From positions 70,372,001 through 70,436,000 of the forward strand of contig OZ076409.1 in the NCBI GenBank assembly GCA_964187785.1: 64,000 nucleotides of DNA. The letters run 5' to 3'. The stretch is from Amphiscolops sp. MND2022. Taxonomy: Eukaryota. The notes beneath the pieces were generated by a model that made no database searches, was not told the origin of the DNA, and was given only the letters and a program-made list of their open reading frames with translations. Of this stretch, positions 1-11,044 are shown in pieces (position 1 is the stretch's first letter; each line of letters begins with the position of its first letter). Made by a program: the position numbers and the translations under genes.

Positions 1-2335
1 AAGCACCTTTCCTGTCACATCATAATTTTCATAGATTGATGCAGTTTCACGTAAAAATATCTCCCCTAGTAAAAACTACACATACAACAGAAAATCAATC
101 GCCTCCCTACAAGAAAGTGATGGTAACTTTGCATAAAAAACTGAAATTTCGAGCAATTGACTGGGTTCTCTGTGGAGTGGACTTGGGACTAACGATTTCA
201 AAAAGATTTGCAGTTTTTATTTCAGTTTTTGCACATGCAAATTTGAGTCGATGAACTCAGAAATCGGTCCCTCTGGGGCTCATTAATTCTTTATGCGACA
301 GCAAAAACTTACGAACAGAAACTTTGAAACTTTTGTTCAATTGAAAACCAACAATTTGTGAAAAATTTAATCATTCACTATTTGCTCCAAAATTTCTGCT
401 TCAATCGTGAGAAGTTTCACAAAAAATCAATGCTGCTGCAATTGGCATCAAGCATTTTGATATTGTGGCAATACTGAAAGATCGTCTTGTCAACTTCTAG
501 GACTTCTTGCCAATTATAGTACCTCCAAAACCTCATTAATAACAAAATTTCGTAAGTTATTCTTTTGCAAGATTTGGGCAGAAAAGAAAAGTCTACCGTG
601 TTAATTTGAAAATTATTCACAATTTCTACCCGCAAAAATGCAAAAACCAAAACTTTTAGGGTAGATTCAGAGGTACAGGTAGAGTACCCAAGATTGCTTT
701 CTTTGCTTGTCACCACGGACTAAGAAAAAGGTGCTGGGGTGGTTTAGAGTTTCCCGATAAATAATGTCTCCCGAACGTTGACTTGTTGATGCCGCGTCGT
801 TCATCGACAGGTTTTTATTTCTCAGTCTAAATTTCCAAGAGTTTTCGAGCTGATCATGGACAAAATATGATTGTTTTTCATATCATTCCCTGTACCAGGG
901 AGGTAGCGTAATAAGCAGACCGGTCTAAAAGCAGACGAGACTTTGAGCAGATATATACTAGTTTAAATTAAAATTAGAACATGTTTTTCACGCTGCTGAT
1001 AAGTATTAAAACCTCCATATATGTTCCGCACGCCACGCAGGCGGCATTTAGGTCTTCGCTACGCTCGGGGATACTTACCTGGCGCAGGCAATCACATTTA
1101 AAATTTATACTCATTACGCTATTTTACTTTCAGTTGTGCTTCAATACCAATGGATTGAAATTTTCAGAGAAGACAATTTCGACCAATCAGGCCATTTGAG
1201 TTTTCTTATAATATTTTTTGTTATTCGGCTGGTATCCGCCCAATTTACGAACTCCATGTACCGGCTTTGATTCTTCTCGGACTAAAGAAAATACAACTAA
1301 TAAGTTTGTATTCGTATGATTACCACTCGTTCGCTTCATCTCAATGAAAGCGCCGTTTCACTGCTTTTAAAAGTGGGCTAACAAAACGGGTCGACATATA
1401 GGTCTGGAAAAAATCACATTTACCGCTTCTATAACATTTCAGCTGACGCAAAAATATTTTCAAATGTGAAACAGTCTTCTGCACATGTTTGTCGATAAAA
1501 AAGAGACCAAATACTTCTGTACAAGCTTCGACGGATGTGTTGGGCAGCGTATGATTTACGATAGATGATTTCTTCTTGAATTCTGAAAAGTTTGGATTCA
1601 CTCGGGTAGCTAATATCGCACAAGCAGGCGTGAGAGTGTACGGCACTAATATTAAAATCTTAACTAGCCCTTTTTCTATGGCTGGGATAGTTCAGATTGA
1701 AGTCACCCATAGGAATAATAAAAACGTTTCCGTAATAGCACTATCAAAACTGCAAGCAAACTCTTAGATGAAAGAAATTCAAGGTTTCTCAATGGACAAT
1801 AAGTGATAATTACAAGCAGCCTTTTCAAATGGGTCTATTTGAATTTTAATCGGAGCATCGCACTTTCCTCCGAACTGGTCCAAAACGAGATTTTTACAAC
1901 TTCACTGAATCTACCAGGAATAAAAATTAAGATCCAAAAGTGCCAAAAAATATCAGAAGGGATACGCTTAAAGGATAAACAACAAAAACCCATTTTTTGA
2001 AAAATTCGGATTTTTCTCTTTCGGAAAAAGTCGCATAGTGCTCAAAACCCTAAGGAGTCCTTTATGCTCGCAAAATTTTCGTTTCCAGTAAAAATCGAGT
2101 GGGAGCTTAGAGGAAAAGAAATGAGAAAAGTCGCATAGTACCAAAAAAACGCCAGTTTCGAAAAATTAGGATATAGCGCAATATTTTCGATATAGTGCAA
2201 CCTCCGCCTCCTCCTTAGTAGAACGCAATTTACTTCGGATATAACGCCAAAAGTTTGGATATAGCGTGCTGGGCCGCTGAGAATAATTTGTTGTAAAATA
2301 TCAAAAAAATGAAGGGACCCTTTGGAGACATTTAA

Positions 2336-4400
2336 CCCTCTTCTGCACACACATTGATCTTATTGTGGTAGAAACAAAATTTATGATTTCACAAGCCAAA
2401 ATTGCCCACTTTGTCAGAAAATGAACTTCCTTGGAGAACAAAACTTTCAGCTTTCATGATCTTGTTTCGTTACAAAAATGTATCACTGAGCATAAACACG
2501 TAAAAATTATGTTTGCAACTTTCAATTGGAAATTTGTAGTAAAACAATGAAACTTCGAAATTGACAAATTTGGAAGCTAGTTTTCATGAAATTGTTTGAA
2601 ACAATTCTTGGTAGACGTGAAACATAGGTGGACATCGCATTTTTCACACCCAACGAAAGTATTGCCCTCCGATCCTGTGATTTTGCCACAAAGTGGATTT
2701 TTGCAACGTCCTCTTTTCTCATAAAACTTTGGCCAATGAGAAACATTGTCGGTCCTCCGTTCTTTAGATGGTAGTGGTTTTGCTGGTCCTCTAATTTTTT
2801 TCATCAAATGCTCGTGTTCAATCTCTGAATAACGTGGTCGTCCTACTTTCCGTTTCCGATCAAGGCCATATTTTGCACCTGCGCACAGACCGAAAGCAAC
2901 AGCGGCTTTGAAATCCCATAGATCCATTGTTTTGGGGAATCCCATATCGTCCGAATCTCGTCGATATAAAAGCCAAGAGTTGATGATTGCCAAATCGGCG
3001 AAGTGATAGAAAATTTTCAGATAAAACCTTTTTCTTGAATCGATTTTGATTCTGTAGAGCGAAAGTAAGCGACCGATGTTGTCGATTTGTCCCATGAACG
3101 AATTGTACTCGGGGATTAGATTTGGACAGGATACTTCAATTTCTTTCTGATCTTCGGAAGACCACCGTTTCACTATGGTAGGCGGTATTGCATTCATATA
3201 GTTGGATGCCACATAAACTGGGCGGTTGTCATACCATTTCACTGCCGAAATTTTGGTATTCTGCCAAATTGCTTGTTTTTCAATGAACGTGCCTCTGCCA
3301 CTTTTTTTCATGTCTCTGTCTTCCGGATAAGACAAGTCTTTGAATCTTGACAATTGAAATGTCGAGATACAGAAAATCTTCCTCTCATGAAGTTTGGAGA
3401 ATAGATCGGGGGATGAAAACCAGTTATCGAATGCAATTTTGTAGTTTTTTCCTTCAGGAAGAACTTTTGCGAGATCCCATACTACCTTGCTGGACTTCAA
3501 GAGCTCGGTGTTATTCTCTGTTGACGCTTTTCCACCATAAAGTTCGGTTTTCAAAATGATTCCATATTTTTCGGTGCAGATCATGTAAAGTTTACAGCCC
3601 CATTTTTTAGGTTTTTTTTTGGGTTATATTGCCTGAGTTTACTTTTTCGACCTTTGTAGGGTATAGTGTTTTCATCCACACTGCATTTTTCTTCTGTTTC
3701 AATTTTTGACGCAACTCTGTTGAACTGATCTATGATCGGACGAAACTTGAAAAATTTATCGCTTCCGGGGTTATCTTCGTTGCGGACGAAATGCAAGTTC
3801 CGCCGGATTTTTTCGAAAGTGTGTATCACAAATCTTTGACATGAACTGTTCATCAAAGTAGTCCCTGAAATAATCAGATGGCTCTCGAACTTTTTGAGCA
3901 GTTTGTCGTTCGTTCAGGAATGTATATGTTGGGAACTCTTCTGTCCTGGATCGCCATCTTGGCTCATTGGTGGTGGATCGCACGGATTGGGCAATTTTCG
4001 TGAGAGGCTCTTCATCTTCAGAAGATAGAAATTCTGAATCATCCGAGTTGGATTGGCTATTAGAGTCTTCATCACTGCTCTCTTTTTCTGAAGAGTCACC
4101 TTTCTCCTCTACTATACATTGGAGGTGTTTCTTTGGGTTGAATTTCTGCTTCTCTTCGGGCATTGCGAGAATTTCTCCATGCCAGCTACTATCTGCAGCC
4201 CATTGTAGTTTGACACCTGTAAATTCATTGCGGTTAACCCAAGAAAGATCGGAGATTTCCGTGATACTTTTGTCACCACTTTTCCGAGTAATTTCAACCG
4301 TAGTTTTATTGATAATTTTTGTTATTCTGGCCGTTTCTTCATGTAACATACCGTTCCTGGTTACATTTTCCTGGTTATAACCTAGCTGATCATGTTCCTG
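2336..4400 (-). mobile_element. piggyBac DNA transposon, disrupted transposase, one end visible
   Basis: Three overlapping ORFs (3771-4349, 3581-3856, 2577-3584) with motifs SVDE, FDNWFSS, YNSFMGQID and a C-terminal Cys-rich domain (CKNPLC..CEKCDVHLC..CF). TTAA at 2332-2335 is followed by CCCTCT. The second TIR was not found. Confidence 0.9.
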
Positions 4401-4429
4401 TACACATTAGCTTATGTAGCTGTCAAGGC

Positions 4430-4800
4430 TGCAGGAGTACGTGACATACGAAAACTTTGTGCGCTTTTCAGCTCTTTCACTTCAAATGCAGAACCCAGCG
4501 TAAGGGTTTCGTGATGAGCGTACCCGGGTCCTTCTCGTGGTAGTTCGATTGCAGAGGAGTATTGTCAAACATCAGCTTTTTCATTTCCATATTTGAAGTG
4601 GAGCTGACGACACTTATCAAAATTAATAACCATCAAATTTTCTAGGTTCCAATGGAAATCATTTTTCATTTCTTCGTGTAGCTGTGAAGTGGTCAGGTTC
4701 AGACTCAAGAATTTTGCATCATTCACAAGAAGAAATGGCCAAGTGAAATGGCATATTTGGGACAGATCATGTTGCAGTGACGATGATAAAGTGTCCTCTT
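4430..4800 (-). pseudogene. Decayed CR1/L2-type reverse transcriptase fragment
   Basis: Hand translation: LLVNDAKFL...HWNLENLMVINFDKCRQLHF, and EKDPGTLITKPLRW in a shifted frame. These resemble FADD..W..N.M.FN..KC and EKDLG motifs. Confidence 0.55.
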
Positions 4801-5159
4801 GTGGTATTTCATTGGTTGCAACAAACGTTCTGATGCCACGTCTTTCAGTTTCACTTACAGGTACATGGATTAAAGGAATGTCTCATTTGACCGCGGGAGT
4901 TTTCCTCTTACCCCGGTTCTGAATCATTTCTGCAAAAAAGGCCGCGGACGAACGCTTTCTCAAAGTAGGGGACCGATCAATTGGTGTTTTTCCACTATGG
5001 CTCCATGAACCTCGTCTAAATAAGCCAATATATTAAAAGAACTTGAGCGTCCCTTTCTGAAACCGAATAGGAAGTTGTGCAGCAAATCTTTGAAGTGCTC
5101 AAATAGCGTCTTGAAGGGACAGACAGCATTAGGTAATTTTCGAAACGGTACACAGAAAA

Positions 5160-5290
5160 GGGGGCTAAAATCCATCCTCACCTCCTCGTGGTAGTCCCTG
5201 GGGAGGCAGTTCAGGCTCGGAGGCACCAGAGAGTTCATTCTCTCGGAGCAGCCGTAGTCGTATTGAACTGCTGAGCTAACGAGGCCATGG
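5160..5290 (+). ncRNA. HDV-like self-cleaving ribozyme at the RTE 5' end
   Basis: P1 GGGGGCT/AGTCCCT (G1.U wobble); P2 CCAT-CCTC/GAGG-ATGG; P3 ACC/GGT; L3 TCCTCGT; P1.1 CC/GG; P4 GGCAGTTCAG/TTGAACTGCT; J4/2 GAGCTAAC with candidate catalytic C5276. Confidence 0.88.
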
Positions 5291-5341
5291 TATGCAAGAA
5301 AGCAATGGCAAACTACTTGCATTATTCTGCCAAGAAAATCC

Positions 5342-5707
5342 ATGAAAGTCACTAAAAAGACTCGGAAAAACAGCGTGAATGGAAATAGAAGACATGAATC
5401 CTCTATGGCCTCGCTCGGTCAGACTTCTGTTTCATCCGAGGACAACTCTGACCGTCATCAAGCTACTCGGATCGTTATGTGCTGCACTTGTAGACAAGCA
5501 ATACACGACGATAGACAAAAAAGCGTCTGGTGCCACCGCGGTGGATGGCAACATCTTGCGTGTTCTACACTTAAATCGATTAAAAACTGGACAAGGAAGT
5601 ATGAATGTAAGAAGTGTAGATGGTGTGTGGCACCCATAACAGAAAGAGATCAAATTCAAACTCTCAAAACAACAGAACTAAAAGAAGTAAAGCCAGAAAA
5701 AAGATGA
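5342..5707 (+). CDS. PHD-finger-like upstream ORF of the RTE element
   Basis: CCTC-x13-WCHRGGWQHLAC-x13-YECKKC pattern. Its stop overlaps the ORF2 ATG (ATGA at 5704-5707). Confidence 0.7.
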   Translation: MKVTKKTRKNSVNGNRRHESSMASLGQTSVSSEDNSDRHQATRIVMCCTCRQAIHDDRQKSVWCHRGGWQHLACSTLKSIKNWTRKYECKKCRWCVAPITERDQIQTLKTTELKEVKPEKR

Positions 5708-8700
5708 ATCTTAAGAGAAAACTAACAGTCGCGTCATGGAACGTCAGAACCATGTATCAAAAAGGGAAACTGGACAATGTTCTTCATGAAATGAAGAGAC
5801 TGAAAATACAGGTTCTAGGCATTTCTGAGATGCGGTGGTTGTCAAGCGGAAGTTTCACAAAGGAAGAATTCTTTGTATGCTGGTCAGGAGAAAAACATGA
5901 GCGGGGCGTTGGATTGATTCTCCAAAAAGACATATATCAATCATACAAAGGTCTCTGCCCCATATCAGACCGGGTTCTTCTGAAACTCCAAGGTGAGAGA
6001 ATGGTACTGAATATTATACAAGTTTACGCACCAACAACAGAAAGTACGGATGAAGACCTCGATGAGTTCTATAATGATGTCCAAAAAGCCATCAGTTTAT
6101 GTAAATCAAAGGGGCCAAAGATACTGATGGGAGACCTAAATGCCAAGGTTGGTAACGGGAGGGTTGGAAACACTGTGGGGCCCTTCGGCCTTGGGATCAA
6201 GAACGAAAGAGGTGAAAGATTCGTAGAGTTTTGCCAAGAGAACGATCTAGTCATTGCAAACACGTGGTTCAAGCAGCATCCAAGACGTCTTTGGACATGG
6301 GAGATGCCCGGTGAGCGTGCAAAGAACCAGATCGATTACATATGCATCTCACAGAGATATAGGAATGGCTTGTTAAGCGCGAAAACATATCCTGGTGCAG
6401 ATTGCGGAACTGACCATGTTCCTGTTGTAGCAACACTCCGAATCAAACTTAAAAAATTGAAGAAACCTCAAGGCAAGGAAAGTTTTGATAGAGGTTTATT
6501 GTGTAGCAAGAATGAGTTCACTGAGAAATACCAAGAAATTGTTGGGCAGGACAGTGAAAGAATTCTGACAATCGAAGAACCTCTCTCCTTGTATAAAGAC
6601 TTCAGTTGCACAATTACTAAAGCCTTAAAAGAATATATACCGGAGAAACAAAGCAAGAAGGAACAACAAGACGAGAACGTCTAAAGTCGGCGCCGTATCT
6701 AAGGCTCAAAAAGCGTAAAACACTTTTTTTGAAAAAAAATTGAAATTTTTGAAAAAAAATTCTTTCAAAAGAAGTCGCATAGTGCCGAAAAATGTAAAAG
6801 GGGGGACCCTTCTGGATTTATTAACAAACATTCCGTTGCAAAATATTAAAAAACTCAAAGGGGGACCCTTTGGGGACATTAAAAAATTTTCGAAAAAAAG
6901 TCGCACAGTTCCGAAAAAAATCCAAAGGGGGGACCCTTTGGGCACGTCCGGTTTTGTACGTTTCCTTGAAAAAGTAAAAAATGAAAGGGGGACCCTTTGG
7001 AGTAAAGTTTGCCTTGGGCGGACTTGGCCAGGTGCTCTGCGCAGAATTGTAAAAAGTGGACCGATCAGTGTGAGGATTGTAGTCTGAAGAAAGAAAAAAA
7101 AGTCACTACTGTAGTCGGGCATTTTTCCTTAAAAGGAAAACGCGCCGACTAAAAAACATGGATAACTGAAGATATAAAAGAATTGTTTGATAAACGCAGA
7201 AAAGCAAAAGGAACAAATGAATACCCTTTAATAGATAAACTGGTCAAAAAGAAGTGCAATGAGGAATACACGAAGTTTCTGGAAGAAAAATGCGAAGAAA
7301 TCGAAGAAAGACTTCTTGTAAACCCAGCTGAAGCACACAAACGAATCAAGGAACTCTCAGGAAAACAACGCAACTCCCGCAGAACGAACATGATTAAAGA
7401 TGAGAACGGGTTATTGCTCTTGGAAAGCAGTGAAGTCAAGGATAGATGGCAGCAATATACCAAAAATTTGTATGACGATCCAAATAGAAGTGAATCAATG
7501 CCCTTCGTTTTCGAAGAGCCGTTAACAGGACCACCCATACTTAAGGATGAAGTTCGGTGGGCTATGAAAATTGCTAAAGAAAATAAAGCAATGGGGCCTG
7601 ATGGTATTCCGATAGAAGCGCTGAAAGCACTAGAAGAGATGGGAGTAGACTTAGTTCATCACCTGATTAGCCGCATTTATGAAACAGGCGTTGTTCCTGA
7701 TGAAATGCTCAAGTCTGTTTTTGTCACTTTGCCCAAAAATCCTAGTGCTACAGAGTGTGTAAATTTTAGGACAATTTCTCTCATGAGCCATGTTTTAAAG
7801 TTGCTGCTGAGAATTATGGTACAGAGAATTGAAAAGAAAGACCACTTTTTAATCAGCAAAGAACAATTCGGATTCATGCCAGACAGAGGCACTCGAAATG
7901 CCATTTTATGTCTAAGAGTTATTGCAGAGAGATTGTTGAACCACCAACAAAAACTTTTCGTCTGTTTCATTGATTTTGTGAAGGCCTTCGATAAGGTTAG
8001 GCACAACGAAGTTTTAGAAGCCCTTGATGAAGCCGGCATCGATGACAAAGACCTTCGCCTTTTACAAAATATCTACTGGAAACAAAAAGCAACGGTGAGA
8101 GTTGGTGACGAGGAAACTGGTGTCTTTGACATCAAGATTGGTGTCCGACAAGGCTGTGTAGCATCCCCAATCCTGTATAATACCTTCAGTGAAAAAATAA
8201 TGAAGTCAATAGAAGAAATGAAAGGTGTCAGCATTGGCGGGATGAACATTAACAATCTTCGATTTGCAGATGACACAGCAGTGATCGCGGATTCAGAGGG
8301 CAAACTGCAGTTGTTAATGACATCCTTGAAGGATGCATGTGAAAAGCATGGAATGGAAATTAACACCAAGAAAAACAAAACCGAAGTAATGGTAATCTCC
8401 AAAGAACCAGAAAAGTGCTCAATATATTTGAATGAAGAAAAGATTAATCAAACAGAAACCTTCACTTATCTTGGGACGCTCATAACAGAAGATGGAAAAT
8501 GTACAAAAGAAATAAAATGTAGAATAGCCCAGTCAAAAACTGCATTCACCAATTTGAAAAAGATCCTGACAAACAAAAAAGTTCCCTTCAAAACCAGATT
8601 TAGAGTTTTACGTTGCTACGTTTGGCCGGTACTTTTGTATGCGTGTGAAACCTGGACACTCAATCTTGAGTCGAAGAAACTCCTTGAAAGTGTTGAAATG

Positions 8701-9039
8701 TGGTATCTCAGGAAAATGGAGCGCATATCATACACAGCACACAAAACCAATGAATTTGTTTTAAGTAAAACCCAGAAAAGCCGGATGATACTTAGAGATA
8801 TTGAAACGAGACAATTTAAATTCTTTGGACATGTGATCAGAAAATGCGATTTGGAAGAAACAATTCTTTCCGGTTACATCAACGGCAACAGATCCAGAGG
8901 AAGAAGTAGAAAGACATATCTTGATGATATCTCGGAAAAATTAAAAAGAAGTCGGGCCGAGTGCATAAGAATCGCAAAGAAGAGAGAAGAATGGAGACTT
9001 TTATGGAAAGCCTATGTCTGTGACCAGACACGGCACTAA
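5704..9039 (+). CDS. RTE ORF2 (APE endonuclease + reverse transcriptase), interrupted by insertion 6666-7154
   Basis: SWNVRT, MGDLNAKVG, QIDYI, TDH; QFGF, DFVKAFD, GVRQGC, LRFADD, YLG, YACETW. Both halves are in the same frame and rejoin as KKEQTWITE once 489 bp are removed. Confidence 0.93.
6666..7154 (-). mobile_element. Non-autonomous Helentron-like (HINE/DINE-1-type) element, complete copy
   Basis: Subterminal IR AGTCGGCGC/GCGCCGACT, hairpin at one end, GACG-N4-CGTC stem-loop plus TTGT at the other; inserted between two T's with no TSD. Confidence 0.8.
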
Positions 9040-9357
9040 AAGAAGAAGACACAGAAAAGAAACAGGACAATGAAGCGAAAGATTACTTTTGTTTCATTTT
9101 TCTTGGATTGGACTCACTACTGTATCCTTCGATTTAAAAAATTCTAAACTCTGCAGTAACCAGCTCTAAGCTTTAAGCACAGTAACTAAGTCTATTCAAA
9201 GGTTAAGTTAATTTCGCAACCATATGGATGCAGAAAGAGCCCGTCCATGGGTCTTCTGACAAAAACAAATTCGCACGGTTTGGGCCTTTCCTCGCTTATT
9301 ATTCAATACTCTTCAAAGGCAAGAAACTAAATGTAAACATGAAATAACAAATGTTGA

Positions 9358-11044
9358 ACAAGACGGGAGCGTCTCAAGTCGGCGCTATACCTAAGGCTTA
9401 AAACGCGCAAAAGTTTTTAAAATATGCTCAAGACGTTTTCATGAAAGTGTCGAAGCACTCAAAACGCTTCAGAAGTTCAGATGTAGCGTGCTGAGACAAA
9501 TACGAGCGTTTTTTTCAATTCTACGCCTCCTCCTCGGGAAATCGGATATAACGTGCTGGGACAAATGGGAACTTCCGCCTCCTCCTTAGTAAAACGTAAT
9601 ATAGTTCGAATATAACGTCAAAAATTCGAATATATCGCAATATTTTCGAACCTTACCTCCAAAAATCAGATAGTATTGAAAAAAAAATTGGTGGATGAAT
9701 ATTGAGAATGATATCAGACAAAAAATGACAATTTTGAAGTCTCACAATGCCAAAAAATGTGAAAGGGGTCATTTGAGCTTTTAACATCCAATTTGTTGCA
9801 AAATATCAAAAGCAAATTGAAGAGGGGACCTTTTGGAGACATTAAAAATTTACAAAACGTCTAACAGTGCCGAAATAATCAAAAGGGGGACACTTTAGTC
9901 ACGTTCGGTTTTGTTGTATGTTACGTTAAAAAGAAAAAATAAGAGGGGAGCCTTTGCACTACCTTAGATGCGTTTTCGCTGGCCAGAATTGGCCAGTACA
10001 GTAGTTTCTGTAAAAAGTGTCCACTACAGTAAAATGCCAAGTTTCGAAACACCCAAAGGGTGCCTTTTGTGCTCGGAAAACGCTTTAGAAGTTCGGATAT
10101 AGGGTGTTGGGAGAAATGGGAGCGCTTGTTTTTGAACCTCCGCCTCCTCCTTGGTAAAACGCAATACAAATAGGATTGAACGTCAAAAATTCGGATACAG
10201 CACTTTACTTCGGAGAGTATTGAAAATTTTTTTGGTGGATGGATATATATTGAGAAAACCTGATGTCAGACGAAAAATAAGACTTTCGAAGTCTCATAAA
10301 GCCGAAAAAGGAAAGGGGGAATCTCATAGGGCCGAAAACGTAGGAAGGGTGACCCTTATGCTTTGGAATGGTTTTGTTCGTTAGAGGCTTTGGATGCTCA
10401 TCAAGTACTAAGTACTTATGGTAAAAGTGCTCAGTGCACAAAAAGTGGACCATTCAGAGTGAGACTGACAAAAAACTAGTCACTGTAATAGGTGGACCTC
10501 TTTAGTCGGCGATTTTCTAGTGAAAAGTGCCCGACTCTTACAGTGGCTAGTTTTTTATTTTTTTTCGTCAGACCACAGACCTCATCGCGTATGTACCACT
10601 TTTTACAGAAACTGATAAAACTACTCAGGCCAAGTCCGGCCAATGCAAACTTAGTGCAAAGGGTCCCCTTCCATTTTTAACCTTTTTTACGTAACCTACA
10701 AAACCAGAAGAGACTAAAGGGTCCCCCTTTCATTTTAAACCTTTTTTACGTAACCTACATAACCAGAAGAGACTAAAGGGTCCCCCCTTTCACTTTTTTC
10801 GGCACTGTGCGACTTTTTTTGAAAATTTTTTTAACGTCTCAAAAGAGTCCCCCTTTTGAGTTTTTTGATATTTTGCAACAGAATATATGTTAATAAAGCC
10901 CAAAGGGACCCCCTTTTACATTTTTCGGCACTATGCGACATTTTCTGAAAGAAAAATCGAAAATTTCAAGTTTTTTTTTAAAAAGTCTTTTGCACTTTTT
11001 GAGCCTTAAATAGCGCCGACTTTCCTTAAAAGCGCAGACTAAAA
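9358..11044 (-). mobile_element. HINE-like copy with a second, inverted copy (10501-11023) nested in its terminal hairpin
   Basis: ACAAGACGGGAGCGTC..AGTCGGCGC at the start, AGCGCAGACTAAAA at the end; the inner copy starts TTTAGTCGGCG and ends GCGCCGACTTT. Confidence 0.72.

Follow-up and report, generated by a model that had tools for sequence, protein, structure and literature searches.

An HDV-like ribozyme fold at the first nucleotide of a young RTE LINE in Amphiscolops sp., and a conserved pseudoknot ahead of its start codon

Self-cleaving ribozymes have been described at the 5' end of several non-LTR retrotransposons. Closest to the present case are the HDV-like ribozymes of RTE elements (Ruminski 2011, as reported in the available sections of PMC6765202, PMC5786205 and PMC13725137), in which a 5'-terminal nested double pseudoknot has a variable upstream flank and a conserved downstream sequence, and for which release from co-transcripts and a role in translation have been proposed. 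The HDV-like ribozymes of R2 and L1Tc, in the accessible parts of PMC3774820 and PMC3185411, possess five helices and a 5' junction defined by cleavage, together with junctions that show microhomology or additional bases, and upstream bases that are able to extend P1; the G of L3 is presented as an important residue of HDV-like ribozymes in the same part of PMC3774820. The RTE element Perere-3 of Schistosoma mansoni (excerpts of PMC8501958) combines a self-cleaving ribozyme beside the target-site duplication (TSD) with a single APE-RT ORF.

Here we describe an RTE LINE of Amphiscolops sp. MND2022 that resembles these systems in the features listed. It lies in a stretch of 64,000 nucleotides of contig OZ076409.1, which was analysed as a whole and is called the window below. 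Unlike the RTE ribozymes in the published sections, the window family has no Rfam match at E<=1, a 48-nt insert in P4 and a bulged P2. Unlike R2 and L1Tc as portrayed in those sources, the element is of the APE type, with dispersed targets and TSDs of 10-12 bp, and its ribozyme has a J1/2 of 5 nt where R2 carries long insertions. Whereas the excerpts on Perere-3 describe twister variants in which the TSD supplies part of P1, the fold in the window is wholly element-encoded.

The ribozyme fold and the element behind it

The insertion headed by the ribozyme measures 3.9 kb (5160-9048) and encodes an APE endonuclease domain and a reverse transcriptase domain. The underlying element is a 3.4-kb RTE LINE of a young, low-copy family. 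Its features, with those of the ribozyme, are as follows.

5150..5159, + strand: 5' copy of the TSD, 10 bp; the next G is common to target and element
5160..5290, + strand: HDV-like ribozyme fold, from pair lists, descriptor and sister-family comparison; predicted cleavage 5' of G5160
5160-5166/5193-5199, + strand: P1, 7 bp, opening with the wobble G5160.U5199 at the predicted cleavage site
5172-5179/5281-5290, + strand: P2, halves 5176-5179/5281-5284 and 5172-5175/5287-5290, 4+4 bp with a 2-nt bulge
5180-5182/5190-5192, + strand: P3
5183-5189, + strand: L3, 7 nt; contains the U and G of the reverse wobble and the two C that pair in P1.1
5184-5185/5200-5201, + strand: P1.1
5205-5214/5263-5272, + strand: P4, 10 bp, closing a 48-nt structured insert (hairpin, 5215-5262); domain 5205..5272
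5273-5280, + strand: J4/2, holding the predicted catalytic C5276; identical in family 2
5342..5344, + strand: AUG of the ORF, 9 nt after stem 2 of the pseudoknot; in copy L018 a frame of 1092 aa begins at the corresponding AUG
5480..5617, + strand: PHD-finger-like Cys/His motif at the ORF N-terminus, fourth Cys absent (a lead only)
5731..6417, + strand: APE endonuclease domain (Pfam PF03372/PF14529); in the window copy a 1-nt loss near 5699 lies between it and the ORF start
6667..7150, + strand: nested repeat element of about 490 bp that interrupts the ORF
7732..8478, + strand: reverse transcriptase domain (Pfam PF00078, E 2.6e-36)
9037..9048, + strand: stop codon and (AAG)n tail
9049..9058, + strand: 3' copy of the TSD, 10 bp

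The first-pass annotation of this DNA had proposed a complete HDV-like nested double pseudoknot at 5160-5290, and scripted pair lists bear this out: the five helices P1, P1.1, P2, P3 and P4 all pair. Both C5276 as the predicted catalytic C and the conserved A of J4/2 are present, C5276 being invariant in seven other copies and in family 2 (a second RTE family of the same genome, see below), and the P4 domain with its insert reaches -33.4 kcal/mol when folded alone. The 131 bases form an HDV-like ribozyme fold, a class known at RTE 5' ends, for which Mg-dependent self-cleavage is predicted.

A lenient HDV descriptor, built from the consensus of the class after the site had been seen, gave a single match over both strands of the window and matched in 2 of 300 dinucleotide-preserving shuffles. 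A search of window positions 4000-10000 against Rfam gave no match at E<=1, and the sister loci reached sub-threshold scores only (20-22 bits) with HDV-type models. Rfam models are family-specific; what a missing match restricts is membership in a curated family rather than in the class of folds. Nested-only folding of the ribozyme was unremarkable (z -1.68, 12 of 200 shuffles equally stable), as is expected of a double pseudoknot; the method cannot score pseudoknots. Genome-wide, the HDV core pattern was met 21 times against 13 times in a reversed control; ten of the 21 matches belong to the window family and family 2, seven form a separate group on small contigs and four are without the fold. 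The small-contig group (L040-L043 and L045-L047, on G000 contigs C169, C378, C692, C791, C1281, C1282 and C1607) consists of separate, diverse HDV-like folds with P4 inserts of about 120 nt, common flanking motifs and a contig G+C content of 48%; an RTE ORF does not lie downstream in the three contigs checked, and the group possibly stems from another organism in the assembly.

Several observations bear on the activity of the fold. With pseudoknot energies not included, nested-only folding yields competing structures of -52.0 kcal/mol whereas the nested halves of the ribozyme reach -44.6 and -43.9 kcal/mol; the competitors are thus 7-8 kcal/mol better than either half, so that the rate of cleavage could be low. 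One competitor is a 7-bp helix in which L3/P3 pairs with the 3' P2 strand and which family 2 cannot form. Moreover, in five of the six full-length copies a C or U stands at -1, from where it could lengthen P1 to the detriment of P1.1, the window copy having an A; such extension of P1 by upstream bases is reported to lower L1Tc cleavage in the accessible part of PMC3185411. From the fold as analysed, cleavage by the ribozyme at 5160-5290 is predicted as likely.

As a gene the window copy is dead, by the frameshifting 1-nt loss near 5699 and the nested repeat of about 490 bp at 6667-7150; copy L018 has a single intact ORF of 1092 aa in which Pfam finds APE and then RVT_1. The family has mostly TSDs of 10-12 bp and a microsatellite 3' tail, (AAG)n, and RTE TSDs typically measure 7-15 bp according to the available text of PMC6007223. 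The single ORF, the tail, the TSD length and a BovB-type 5' segment place the element among the RTE LINEs. The BovB-type segment, a conserved 5'-UTR stretch, precedes the AUG and was matched by eye to BovB 769-824. In the leader of 182 nt there are three out-of-frame AUGs, at 5287, 5292 and 5305, inside P2 and the pseudoknot. The upstream frame from AUG 5292 runs for 17 codons, its stop overlaps the main AUG, and it is not conserved in family 2.

The PHD-like region at the ORF N-terminus follows a Cys4-His-Cys3 pattern without the fourth Cys and has an Atlas feature score of 0.89 to PHD clusters, which we treat as a lead. It has no Pfam match, and a homolog search over lengths 616-1960 gave 14 candidates, none at E<=0.1. 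The motif is also found in L159 (G000:C4:84007076), an older, decayed relative, and is absent from family 2. PHD fingers open the single ORFs of L2 and CR1 in the available portion of PMC4120745, where an RTE case is not seen.

The nested repeats of the window (6667-7150) and of copy L019 (G000:C4, about 54.688 Mb) sit at the identical ORF nucleotide. Both belong to one abundant repeat family and have the same ends and diverged interiors, which makes them different members; the two RTE copies have no derived variant in common, and about 1430 compared bases show 7 substitutions between them. Judged from these sequences, either an independent same-site insertion or a conversion may have placed the repeats. 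The repeat has subterminal inverted repeats and is located at A runs, and it may resemble the Helentron-type HINE/DINE-1 elements.

Copy junctions and a sister family

The window's own 1.07-Gb genome holds at least 37 matches to the 3' end of the element; identity is 95% or higher in at least 29, and all 29 copies at this level were inspected for their 5' junctions. Six, including the window copy, begin at nucleotide 1, in six unrelated flanks and with distinct TSDs, in agreement with the expectation that other full-length copies start at the same G. The remaining 23 comprise one copy that starts at nucleotide 2, one that is unreadable owing to an assembly gap and 21 that are 5'-truncated, with 20 different start positions ranging from 328 to 3320. 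Hence six of the seven readable copies that reach the 5' end start at nucleotide 1 and the seventh at nucleotide 2. No copy extends upstream, and no upstream sequence is common to the copies. The copy that starts at nucleotide 2 (L020, G000:C10:45304877) is bipartite, its first 315 bases being joined to the last 900, and ends in a long (AAG)n tail.

The predicted cleavage site had been equated with the TSD boundary. It does coincide with the end of the TSD at 5150-5159; judged from the window copy by itself, the boundary could lie one base further on, since the target also continues with a G. This G1 belongs to the element, because two full-length copies that have an A as the next target base still begin with G1. 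The next target base is a G in the other four of the six full-length copies, which amounts to a one-base microhomology (one of the TSDs has a mismatch, by eye), and many truncated junctions show microhomologies or extra bases as well, as is also described for R2 in the available text of PMC3774820. Among the copies the leader is nearly invariant and the ribozyme core is untouched. The copy junctions, together with the covariation in the sister family, uphold the claim that G1 of the HDV-like ribozyme is the first nucleotide of the RTE LINE, and the common start at G1 is what a template ending at the cleavage site would give.

The sister family, family 2, has the same ribozyme core at 43% identity in the endonuclease N-terminus. 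Three P1 pairs differ between the families: in two, both bases have changed, and in the third a single base, while the G1.U wobble is kept; P2 and P1.1 are invariant, and L3 and J4/2 are kept. The first P3 pair of family 2 is mismatched, and its P4 is a shorter, unrelated hairpin that also folds. The P1 covariation, coming from two families only, is modest, and 29 of 500 shuffles score as high. Two of the three core-bearing copies of family 2 begin at G1, the third lacking four bases. In L172 (G000:C2:44640263), a reversed family-2 3' end is joined directly to a short forward leader piece with the pseudoknot.

Other 5' modules were met among the related loci. A distant APE-RT element with an open frame of 1078 aa (L163/L164, G000:C2:100805939 onward, L195 and L196) is headed by what we take to be a twister-like core instead of an HDV fold; this head of L163 has no Rfam match at the gathering score, and L195 shows a short duplication at its 5' junction. 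Twister ribozymes were also suspected in the nearest metagenomic relatives L049, L060 and L079, and Rfam did not support them: a search of 20 related loci at E<=10 brought up neither a twister nor a pseudoknot family. The leaders of L049, L053, L056, L060 and L079 carry other conserved, structured-looking 5' modules that neither the descriptor nor Rfam recognises, possibly variant ribozymes. Sub-threshold SECIS-like Rfam matches of 31 and 26.5 bits lie just before the endonuclease in L052 (1356-1418) and L059 (691-755), where they sit in coding sequence and are probably due to chance.

A pseudoknot in the BovB-type leader segment

Between the ribozyme and the AUG, the leader can form a second structure.

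5292..5332, + strand: H-type pseudoknot, 41 nt, with interleaved stems, starting one base after P2
5292-5298/5316-5322, + strand: stem 1
5299-5305, + strand: loop 1, 7 nt
5306-5310/5328-5332, + strand: stem 2, followed by 9 nt and then the AUG

A profile search over 80 related metagenomic loci found the segment in 18 of them (12 distinct sequences, one without the anchor motif). Over 14 RTE sequences, 84% of the stem cells are paired, and 31 cells are changed on both sides against 11.8 after shuffling; the covariation score is 0.48 versus 0.17 in shuffled data (0/500), and sliding the partners gives at most 0.17. The MAFFT alignment used here shifts the stem-1 strand of the window by one column, which lowers the 14-sequence score. 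In a fixed register, stem 1 of 12 distinct sequences forms 66 of 72 pairs, compared to 45.5 after strand swapping (0/100000). The sequences were chosen by the loop motif and not by pairing, and 10 of the 14 had served for working out the structure by eye; of the four added afterwards three fit (6, 6 and 5 of 6 pairs) and one misfits (L053, 2 of 6). As a control, 12 chance matches to the loop motif in viral contigs yielded only stem-1 runs of 1-5. The identical layout was found in 5 of 15 further loci by a looser descriptor with obligatory pairing. In a quick tree of the endonuclease domain, from which six loci with too short matches were left out, the pseudoknot-bearing families are separated by long branches.

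The next AUG follows stem 2 at a distance of 8-14 nt in 12 of 13 distinct RTE rows, the exception being L105 with 22 nt. Seven of 12 relatives have this AUG in frame with their endonuclease match, and the rest look decayed. Of the 80 loci, two match the canonical HDV descriptor and both are without the pseudoknot, a count in which variant folds may be missed and many contigs are short upstream. In IRESs of the HCV/pestivirus type a pseudoknot likewise lies at a short, fixed distance 5' of the AUG. Unlike these, the 41-nt element of the window is without the domain II/III architecture and is known by its position and conservation; we speak of a resemblance, not of membership.

The pseudoknot corresponds to a segment already familiar as sequence. 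In the available text of PMC5786205 it is the BovB 769-824 segment, the Bov-A 5' unit and, in several SINEs, the 'RTE 5' part', and window positions 5297-5344 match, by eye, this conserved BovB 5'-UTR segment. In the sequences given there, both stems pair by eye in RTE_BOV_B_AC_1, BovB_VA and RTE-3_MD, in BovB_Plat with a compensatory change in stem 2, and in the non-coding SINEs SINE-1_Pmo, SINE2-2_ACar and EbuSINE2; these seven fully pairing elements differ in their stem-1 sequence, and BovB_Es and BovB_Ta have one stem-1 mismatch each. As far as its accessible text goes, PMC5786205 handles the segment as a sequence similarity only, with zero occurrences of the word pseudoknot. An assignment of the segment to the Ceph-derived domain (3' half) was rejected, that domain being a different segment in the portion of the PMC5786205 supplement at hand. 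A literature search, with most subscription papers outside its reach, found no described fold or function for BovB 769-824, and we provisionally regard its fold as undescribed.

Release, translation and competing readings

We propose that transcription would enter the element from upstream host DNA and promoters, and that the ribozyme would then fold and cut 5' of G5160, in a Mg-dependent reaction with C5276 as general acid, to release the element RNA. The cleaved, uncapped RNA could serve both as mRNA and as template; reverse transcribed to its end, it would give full-length cDNA ending at G1, which would be joined to the target, often via the one-base G microhomology. With the copy junctions and the fold as its basis, we hold with considerable confidence that host-DNA transcription, a cut 5' of G5160 and reverse transcription to the RNA end would account for the insertions starting at G1. 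Release from host read-through transcripts, as suggested in the first pass, is plausible, and RTE elements without promoters that are released by HDV-like ribozymes are described in the available parts of PMC6765202 and PMC5786205 (section 23), with the twister-headed Perere-3 (excerpts of PMC8501958) as a further precedent.

An internal promoter starting at G5160 would set a common 5' end just as well, the fold then being a slow or vestigial ribozyme or a promoter too. L1Tc Pr77 indeed is promoter and ribozyme in one (accessible text of PMC3383444), and the competing folds predicted for the ribozyme region fit such a state; this reading would not explain, however, the coincidence of start and G1 to the base in two families, and the compensatory P1 changes, the kept L3, P1.1 and J4/2 and the replaced P4 argue for selection on the geometry of RNA catalysis, which makes a promoter improbable in our judgement. 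Even less can be said for chance pairings in a G+C-richer patch: the negative Rfam result, a folding z of only -1.68 and a core pattern found 13 times in the reversed control against 21 real matches are set against a minimal descriptor satisfied in only 2 of 300 shuffles, the exact coincidence with the element end and the covariation, by which this explanation is already effectively refuted.

What the pseudoknot does is judged more cautiously. We put forward tentatively, at less than an even chance, that the BovB-group segment, from which Bov-A and the middles of several SINEs derive, is a compact 41-nt pseudoknot on which ribosomes land 8-14 nt ahead of the AUG, that the 5' ribozyme is an exchangeable cutter, HDV-like here and of other types in relatives, and that translation activity credited earlier to the ribozyme may be that of the knot. 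The idea, raised in the first pass, that the ribozyme fold or the cleavage event drives cap-independent translation, with the pseudoknot being secondary, draws on reports for non-LTR HDV-like ribozymes (Ruminski 2011, per the available sections of PMC6765202 and PMC13725137) and for the twister variants of the RTE Perere-3 (excerpts of PMC8501958), but 51 nt, including a second structure, lie between the end of the ribozyme and the AUG, and relatives keep the pseudoknot without a detectable canonical HDV fold (descriptor 2 of 80 loci). We therefore consider it rather unlikely, and favour the pseudoknot over the ribozyme for translation, as it is more widely conserved and keeps a fixed distance from the AUG. 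That non-coding SINEs retain it is an equally strong argument for protein binding: in that case the ribozyme would cut and the pseudoknot would be bound by the RTE protein (for RNP assembly, template selection or 5' joining) and would have no role in translation. Both stems pair by eye in the SINEs that keep the segment (PMC5786205, available text), and the R2 protein binds a 5' pseudoknot of R2 RNA according to the accessible part of PMC6765202. Conversely, the spacing of 8-14 nt to the ORF AUG is fixed across deep divergences, and 21 of the 29 copies were integrated without the pseudoknot in the product, though their templates had it. Protein binding is to us a possible explanation, in which our confidence stays short of one half.

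If the pseudoknot is a ribosome-landing element, it would likely position translation at the AUG 9 bases on. We propose more weakly that the 182-nt leader may be a two-module device, with a swappable cleavage module and a conserved pseudoknot, and that the latter may deliver the ribosome past the three buried out-of-frame AUGs.

The ribozyme adds a clean, young example to a published class, with six independent insertions at G1 and a covarying sister family. The pseudoknot opens to test a standing question, the translation of an uncapped RTE RNA whose leader is fully structured and contains three decoy AUGs; it also bears on why SINEs retain a piece of the RTE 5' UTR. RTE UTRs are under engineering for gene writing (PMC13708176, available text), a use in which design would profit from a defined structural element.
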